Shown piece after piece: positions 2,834 to 3,343 of a stretch of 7,142 nt of DNA; within the stretch, counting starts at the first letter, position 1; each line of letters starts with the position of its first letter. The notes beneath the pieces were generated by a model. That model was not told the DNA's origin. It saw only the letters and a list, made by a program, of their open reading frames with translations, and made no database searches. The stretch is from NCBI GenBank assembly GCA_000004985.1, contig GG739133.1; one strand, given 5' to 3'. The stretch comes from Naegleria gruberi. Lineage: Eukaryota. The translations under genes and the position numbers were made by a program.

Positions 2834-2863
2834 GAGCCTTGTCCGAAACCCTGTTTTTTTTCG
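2834..2863 (+). repeat. Left terminal inverted repeat of the nested element.
   Basis: See the element entry above. The outer 15 bp match the right TIR perfectly, there is a 4-5 bp divergent patch, and then T8CG is shared. Confidence 0.75.
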
Positions 2864-2967
2864 CAAAGGTGAGAAAGCCCGAAAATCGAAACAAACGAGA
2901 CACAACACATTCACAACAGCCTTTTCTTCTTTCGCTCCTCGAAACTTGTGCCGGGATTCTTTCTCCT

Positions 2968-3055
2968 NNNNNNNNNNNNNNNNNNNNNNNNNNNNNNNNN
3001 NNNNNNNNNNNNNNNNNNNNNNNNNNNNNNNNNNNNNNNNNNNNNNNNNNNNNNN
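2968..3055. other. N-run of 88 bp (assembly gap or masked sequence) inside the nested element.
   Basis: Seen directly. Confidence 1.
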
Positions 3056-3313
3056 TTTCGAAAGTGCTTTCGAAACTTTCACTCAACTGCAAGAAGTAAA
3101 ATATTTTTATGAGAAGAGAATTTCTTTCTGGTTGGTTTCGAATGTGGTTGTAAGGAAACACTTGTCACGCTTTCATTTACCCATTGTTTTGGCAAGAAGA
3201 TCCAAATCGCTTTCGCACAAAAAAGAATCCCTCTTGTTTCAGCGCTCACACAAATAACAAAATGTGATGAGAGAAAGCGAAAAAGAAGCGTGAGTGTTTA
3301 CTTTTTCAAAAAT

Positions 3314-3343
3314 TCGAAAAAAAAGCGTTTTCGGACAAGGCTC
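3314..3343 (-). repeat. Right terminal inverted repeat of the nested element.
   Basis: Its reverse complement, gagccttgtccgaaaacgcttttttttcg, aligns to 2834-2863. Confidence 0.75.

Follow-up and report, generated by a model that had tools for sequence, protein, structure and literature searches.

A CGAAA motif reiterated through a nested TIR element: candidate binding sites of a mobilising protein

The window analysed here is a 7,142-bp stretch of AT-rich eukaryotic DNA, with N runs at 2968-3055 and 4513-5891. In the middle of a retrotransposon reading frame it carries a 510-bp block (2834-3343; 88 N and 422 determined bases) in which one short CpG-containing motif occurs again and again. Two questions arise: what the block is, and whether the recurrence of the motif reflects recognition by a protein or is a consequence of the composition of the block.

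A nested element interrupts the retrotransposon ORF2

The host sequence is a non-LTR retrotransposon, the second ORF of which is broken by the block at codon 317/318. The parts of the host and of the insertion are listed here.

518-1882: ORF1 of the non-LTR retrotransposon, Asn-rich
1883-4512, plus strand: ORF2 of the same retrotransposon, with an AP-endonuclease (Pfam Exo_endo_phos, weak) and a reverse transcriptase (RVT_1)
2831-2833, no strand: left copy of the TSD, AAT, read from the sequence; one AAT corresponds to a single GAT codon of the homologue
2834-3343, plus strand: non-autonomous TIR element (MITE), recognised by its TIR pair and by restoration of the host ORF2 on removal of 513 bp; without Rfam match
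2834-2863, plus strand: left TIR, consisting of 15 perfect bases GAGCCTTGTCCGAAA, a divergent 5-nt spacer and the shared TTTTTTTTCG
2968-3055, no strand: 88-N run inside the element, in which further motif copies may be hidden
3315-3343, minus strand: right TIR, mirroring the left one with a spacer of 4 nt
3344-3346, no strand: right copy of the TSD, AAT, on the same basis as the left copy

When 2834-3346 (513 bp) is removed, ...LLKIKNN joins LQQVFHNHKRKLN... and the host ORF2 is restored. The restored product aligns without gaps to an uninterrupted homologue (protein P0001 of the related locus L001, which reads ...LLYIKND IYKYYHKQKKKLN... across the same point) at 71% amino-acid identity, a comparison that involves a paralogue or orthologue at that level of divergence and no true empty allele. 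The similarity to this relative extends over the full length of ORF2, and proteins of Willaertia magna and Naegleria fowleri follow at 35-40%. Raw local alignment of the DNA to L001 favours a register shifted by 2 nt, and that register breaks the reading frame.

The ends of the block are equally well defined. A perfect 15-bp TIR, GAGCCTTGTCCGAAA, is found at 2834-2848 and inverted at 3329-3343 (chance expectation, 0.04); the arms reach approximately 29 bp with one indel, through the common TTTTTTTTCG, and inverted similarity weakly continues to approximately 130 bp (p≈0.014). A search of the window allowing up to 3 mismatches returned no further GAGCCTTGTCCGAAA site, and there is no second copy of the element in the window. 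The block is a genuine nested insertion, DNA-transposon-like, with TIRs and a 3-bp TSD.

The element and its TSD together measure 513 bp (3x171) when the 88-N run is counted, so that the host ORF2 resumes in its original frame past the insert. We take this to suggest that the Ns cover genuine sequence whose length is known, not an arbitrary assembly gap, with a 1-in-3 chance of coincidence.

We found no sign that the element encodes a product. A translated 77-aa frame, compared with 1.84 billion representatives, gave one K/R-rich low-complexity match only; Rfam held no RNA family matching the element; and plasmid and phage BLAST with the element returned no similarity. The block has the size expected of a MITE (510 bp, below approximately 800 bp), together with TIRs, a TSD and no detected coding capacity in the 422 bases read. 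On these grounds, 2834-3343 is a non-autonomous cut-and-paste transposon (MITE). Two other kinds of element were considered and rejected. An introner-like spliceable element does not fit, as splicing at the GT/AG candidates found in the TIRs would keep 13 surplus bases and put the ORF out of frame. For a structured RNA or hairpin-forming element, the Rfam search was empty and the DNA of the arms folds no better than shuffled sequence, except for one small palindrome hairpin.

The TSD and TIRs point to PIF/Harbinger

The original prediction had named hAT, PIF and Mutator as examples of superfamilies with subterminal repeats of this kind; PIF turns out to be the best fit, and the other two fail on the 3-bp TSD. 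This length excludes hAT (8 bp), Mutator (9-10 bp) and Tc1/mariner (TA). More specifically, for an Ac/Ds-like hAT element, the flanks have only AAT in common, and the frame is restored by removal of 513 bp, not 518 bp; for a Stowaway-like Tc1/mariner element, the flanks read ...AAT|GAGCC and GGCTC|AAT..., without TA duplication. CACTA (En-Spm) elements deserve closer comparison. They have a 3-bp TSD and multiple subterminal repeats that bind the element-encoded TNPA, and thus resemble the present element in both the duplication and the repeated motif. Their repeat unit of approximately 12 bp nevertheless differs from the 5-7 bp seen here, and CACTA termini are absent: the element ends in GAGCC...GGCTC, not in 5'-CACTA...TAGTG-3'.

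We consider it most likely, from the 3-bp TSD and the likeness of the TIRs, that the element is a Tourist-like member of PIF/Harbinger, which a PIF/Harbinger-type transposase would mobilise in trans. The AAT duplication has the 3-bp length characteristic of that superfamily; its sequence, in the single insertion seen, is not the TWA (TAA/TTA) of typical PIF/Harbinger targets. The TWA target is a preference of PIF/Harbinger and no absolute rule. To our knowledge, a dense array of a CpG-containing pentamer has not been described for Tourist elements. In published descriptions, PIF/Harbinger transposons have a 3-bp TSD, usually TAA, and their ends are bound by the product of ORF1, a distinct Myb/SANT-like protein, which brings in the transposase (PMC2836001). 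Rice PIF/Tourist elements have the TIR consensus GGCCTTGTTCGGTTG together with a 3-bp TSD (PMC2631504). Aligned with one indel, GAGCCTTGTCCGAAA and GGCCTTGTTCGGTTG share 10 identities in the first 13 columns in this post hoc comparison of a single pair, and the two have G.GCCTTGT.CG in common (PMC2631504), a likeness noticed after the fact.

Tourist-like MITEs such as maize mPIF, rice mPing and the rice PIF-type elements are likewise short and non-coding, with TIRs and a 3-bp TSD. They differ from the present element in their TSD (TAA/TTA, versus AAT here) and in their hosts (plants and animals, versus an AT-rich amoeba-like protist here). An autonomous partner as expected for PIF/Harbinger, with the same TIRs and with genes for a DDE_Tnp_4 transposase and a Myb/SANT (MADF) protein, is absent from the window.

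Copies of the motif and their placement

All nine motif copies named in the original prediction are present in the element, which offers 422 determined bp in which to find them. They are tccgaaac (2842-2849), cccgaaaa (2878-2885), atcgaaac (2885-2892), ctcgaaac (2938-2945), tttcgaaa (3056-3063 and 3068-3075), tttcgaa (3136-3142), ttcgaaa (3313-3319) and ttttcgga; the last of these lies at 3328-3335, one base off the 3327-3335 first given. The two palindromic sites said to be 12 bp apart are so spaced when measured from start to start (3056-3063 and 3068-3075), and the motif does belong to the TIR, with CGAAA inside the perfect 15-bp repeat of both ends. The CGAAA/TTTCG sites, read on both strands, are distributed as follows.

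2844-2848 and 2859-2863: motif copies of the left TIR, CGAAA and TTTCG, respectively, read from the sequence
2880-2884 and 2887-2891, plus strand: two direct CGAAA copies in cccgaaaatcgaaac
2930-2944, no strand: dyad TTTCG-N5-CGAAA (TTTCGCTCCTCGAAA)
3056-3063 and 3068-3075, no strand: two TTTCGAAA palindromes with GTGC between them; a hairpin with an 8-bp stem is possible
3136-3140, minus strand: CGAAA copy in GGTTTCGAA; the element has four TCGAAAC copies, this among them
3211-3215, minus strand: CGAAA copy in CTTTCGC
3278-3282, plus strand: CGAAA copy in AGCGAAAAAG, within a 14-nt direct repeat (CGAAAAAGAAGCGT / CGAAAAAAAAGCGT) shared with 3315-3328
3315-3319 (plus strand) and 3329-3333: motif copies of the right TIR, CGAAA and TTTCG, respectively, read from the sequence

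Counted from either end, the first two motif copies stand at the same offsets (CpG at +11 and at +28/29) and in the same inward orientation; TTTCG occurs as T8CG at +20-29 in both ends, inverted relative to the CGAAA of the TIR and 17-18 bp further in, while the spacer between the two copies differs by end (CCCTG versus ACGC). A motif pair that keeps its offsets while its spacer diverges would look like the pattern expected of constrained binding sites, and this symmetric placement is the only internal evidence for constraint on the motif.

The motif had been described as reiterated subterminally; reiterated it is, but it is not confined to the neighbourhood of the ends, as its offsets run from 10 to 495 of 510, throughout the element. 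Of the 15 CGAAA sites, none is followed directly by T and 10 have T at position -2; the wider flanks of the core are not conserved between sites.

The pair of palindromes has some potential for secondary structure: the hairpin or cruciform at 3056-3085 is predicted at -5.6 kcal/mol as DNA (z -2.5 versus shuffles). The first palindrome adjoins the N run at 2968-3055, which hides its left context. A reading of TTCGAA as a heat-shock element or STAT-like site was rejected on inspection only, as the spacing does not fit.

CGAAA is over-represented within the element

CGAAA/TTTCG occurs 15 times in the element, counting both strands, and accounts for 13 of its 20 CpGs. In dinucleotide-preserving shuffles of the element, 3.95±1.8 copies of CGAAA are expected, and none of 5000 shuffles equalled the observed number; the corresponding values are 11 versus 2.13±1.46 for YCGAAA (0/5000) and 5 versus 0.69 for CGAAAC (1/5000). 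Over the whole 7142-bp window, YCGAAA occurs 15 times versus 3.98±2.14 expected, with 11 of the 15 falling within the 422 determined bases of the element. A second-order Markov model reduces but does not remove the excess of CGAAA (15 versus 6.4, approximately 2.4-fold; 13/5000); being trained on the element itself, this null is overfitted and hence conservative. Greater frequency of the motif than in sequence of the same composition, one of the outcomes on which the original prediction had staked its survival, is therefore observed under the shuffles as well as under the second-order model.

When all 512 strand-symmetric 5-mers are scanned without bias, CGAAA comes out on top (z 5.4), and only 0.27% of shuffles contain any 5-mer as extreme (corrected p≈0.003). 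The 6- and 7-mer extensions TCGAAA (8 copies), CGAAAC (5) and GTTTCGA (4) are not significant after multiple-testing correction, so the robust core is the pentamer CGAAA only. TTTCG or CGAAA is the context of 13 of the 20 element CpGs but of 8 of the 47 CpGs elsewhere in the window (Fisher p=3e-4); at the related locus L001, the proportion is 9 of 41. A second 5-mer, GAAAG/CTTTC, is also over-represented in the element (10 versus 3.4 expected).

Composition of the element and the excess of CGAAA

The element differs sharply in composition from the retrotransposon that surrounds it, as the observed/expected (o/e) ratios of four dinucleotide classes demonstrate.

TpA: 0.18 in the element (none in the left 134 bp, 2834-2967), 0.87 in the host TE
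ApT: 0.44 in the element, 0.97 in the host TE
AA/TT: 1.67 in the element, 1.05 in the host TE
CpG: 1.23 in the element, 0.35 in the host TE

CG had been described as generally rare, which holds true within this window, where CpG o/e is 0.21-0.56 outside the element versus 1.23 inside it. The sequence of the element consists essentially of A-runs and T-runs with C or G at their borders. CG directly precedes 15 of 38 A-tracts in the element (39%), versus 7 of 255 in the host TE, and AG, TG, GG and GC together precede fewer element A-tracts than CG does. We regard this CpG-replete, TpA-poor composition as the one mildly surprising feature of the element. One consequence of the TpA depletion is the presence of long stop-free frames in several reading frames (open for 85-140 codons). 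Phasing of the A-tracts, with accompanying DNA curvature, was considered and rejected, given that there is no 10-11-bp periodicity in the element.

The retroelement sequences of the window (500-2833, 3347-4512 and 5892-6700) all show strong CpG depletion (o/e 0.21-0.46), with GpC less depleted. Such a pattern would fit with methylation of cytosines and their deamination in the TEs of this genome.

Composition also supplies the most serious alternative to recognition of the motif by a protein: that the element is a MITE, but the excess of CGAAA is functionless, a by-product of odd composition that could go back to an ancestor built of degenerate low-complexity sequence or short repeats, or to a donor genome with other mutational biases. 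The A-tract-rich, TpA-poor composition does explain part of the excess. The dinucleotide signature is extreme (TpA 0.18, ApT 0.44, AA/TT 1.67, CpG 1.23), GAAAG/CTTTC is in excess alongside CGAAA (10 versus 3.4), and the second-order model shrinks the excess of CGAAA to approximately 2.4-fold; furthermore, the flanks of the sites are heterogeneous, the sites are evenly spread and without helical phasing, and the motif lies in short internal repeats (D3, D4, D6 and D7). Composition does not explain all of the excess, however, which is significant under the second-order model (13/5000) and after correction for all 5-mers, and composition alone does not predict CG before 39% of A-tracts, nor identical motif offsets in both TIRs despite a diverged spacer. 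Weighing these points, we consider a functionless by-product unlikely, albeit to be taken seriously.

Candidate binding sites of a mobilising protein

The reading that we favour, at a probability of roughly one half, is that the CGAAA/TTTCG copies are candidate binding sites of the protein that mobilises the element. The transposase could bind them directly; in PIF/Harbinger, the Myb/SANT-like product of ORF1 could do so instead. Each end would offer one site in the perfect TIR and a second, inverted, 17-18 bp further in, and about eleven further CGAAA copies, several of them in dyads or palindromes, would be available through the body of the element. Multiple sites in both orientations might allow several protein molecules to be loaded at each end; the loaded protein would then bring the two element ends together, and the paired ends would be cut at the tips of the TIRs. 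The MITE inserted into ORF2 of the non-LTR retrotransposon and in doing so duplicated 3 bp (AAT). Several observations weigh against the favoured reading of the motif: the sites are scattered throughout the element, the bases around the core vary from site to site, and the second-order model already accounts for 6.4 of the 15 copies; the analysis had a single copy of the element to work from, with 88 of its 510 bp masked.

Both the binding of a protein and its role in an end-pairing complex are inferred here by analogy with Ac/Ds and PIF/Harbinger. The best functional analogy is Ac/Ds, which resembles the element in having a short CpG motif beside an A-run, in many copies and in both orientations. 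The hAT elements differ from it in their 8-bp TSD, in their 11-bp TIRs of unrelated sequence and in the motif itself (AAACGG/CCGTTT, versus CGAAA here). Binding by Ac is reported to be methylation-sensitive. Within the subterminal 200 bp of Ac, its transposase binds cooperatively to numerous AAACGG hexamers, each with a CpG; of these, Ds1, at approximately 400 bp, has retained no more than a few, along with the TIRs (PMC3260210).

A host factor might instead read the CGAAA and TTCGAA sites, either a transcription factor, its sites being spread by the MITE, or a methylation reader or writer, with the transposase needing only the terminal 15 bp. MITEs are reported to carry and amplify transcription-factor binding motifs (PMC5950925), and in the present element the two TTTCGAAA palindromes suggest binding by a dimer, while the contrast in CpG o/e (1.23 in the element versus 0.35 in the surrounding TE) could reflect protection from methylation. 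Recognition by a host factor appears improbable to us nonetheless: no match to a known factor or motif has been established, the remainder of the window and L001 show no enrichment of the motif (8 of 47 and 9 of 41 CpGs, respectively), and its location inside both TIRs favours a role in transposition.

Least probable by a wide margin is that the block arose as an assembly chimera or by foreign contamination, with chance inverted-repeat flanks, and was never mobile, for although the window has two N runs, a second, abruptly ended insert downstream and a block of foreign composition, the break is precise, the TIR pair is a perfect 15 bp (0.04 by chance), 3 bp are duplicated, the frame is exactly restored and searches of plasmids, phages, prokaryotic genomes and metagenomes gave no match.

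Should binding by the mobilising protein be confirmed, the locus would stand for a family of MITEs and, more broadly, for a PIF/Harbinger-like transposon that is or recently was active in a little-studied lineage of AT-rich protists. CGAAA, which frequently appears as TCGAAAC or as the palindrome TTTCGAAA, would then be a candidate target sequence for the DNA-binding protein that goes with the element. The contrast between a CpG-replete, TpA-poor element and a retrotransposon depleted of CpG could also be exploited, on a small scale, to gauge methylation or insertion age. The significance is modest: a repeated-motif design is ordinary for such elements, and the current view of DNA transposons is unchanged, as textbooks already describe binding motifs repeated close to their ends.

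A bolder version, which we regard as a long shot, would have the element represent an undescribed, recently active DNA-transposon family of an AT-rich amoeba, possibly horizontally acquired, whose mobilising protein, by analogy with Ac, would read the CGAAA array in a methylation-sensitive manner via its CpG. If true, this would explain the kept CpGs of the element (o/e 1.23), its near-absent TpA and the loss of about two thirds of the CpGs in the surrounding retrotransposon.

Other copies, partners and the remainder of the window

We looked for further copies of the element and for a protein that could act on it. A pattern combining the two TIRs and one combining the TIR with T8CG gave 0 matches in metagenome contigs, as did the TIR-plus-T8CG pattern in prokaryotic genomes and in viral contigs. 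Searching the Willaertia locus L002 for the TIR, with as many as 3 mismatches allowed, likewise gave 0 matches. Neither the window nor the metagenome, prokaryotic, viral and protein collections searched yielded an autonomous partner or cognate protein. Exact-protein look-ups of ORF1 and of the interrupted ORF2 of the window found no identical record, and the window contains no tRNA genes and no Rfam families.

The host retrotransposon has several features of its own. The N-terminal part of ORF1 includes a long AAT/AAC (poly-Asn), microsatellite-like tract at 541-760, and the homologous contig L001 covers only the C-terminal part of its own ORF1. The stop codon of ORF1 directly abuts the start of ORF2 (1880-1885, TAAATG), an arrangement similar to that of L001, in which ORF1 ends at 686 and ORF2 starts at 693.

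ORF2 is interrupted a second time, at 4513-6705, by a run of 1379 N and, after it, a fragment of 810 bp (5892 to approximately 6700). The fragment encodes a DIRS/LTR-type reverse transcriptase (RVT_1, with a YIDD motif) that shares 90% identity with a soil-metagenome protein (SRR3989338) and 42% with a protein of Acrasis kona. It ends inside the reverse transcriptase domain, with no LTR at the junction, and replaces approximately 255 bp of the host element (L001 2816-3070). This second interruption looks like a rearrangement, a partial insert or a misassembly.

Upstream of the retrotransposon, positions 1-475 hold a minus-strand gene with its ATG at 475-473 and a Ser/Gly/Asn-rich product, for which a search with the N-terminus detected no homologue. 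Its ATG is only 42 bp from the ATG of the retrotransposon ORF1 (518); at this distance, the 5' end of the retrotransposon abuts the start of the gene, with almost no room for a promoter or 5'-UTR.
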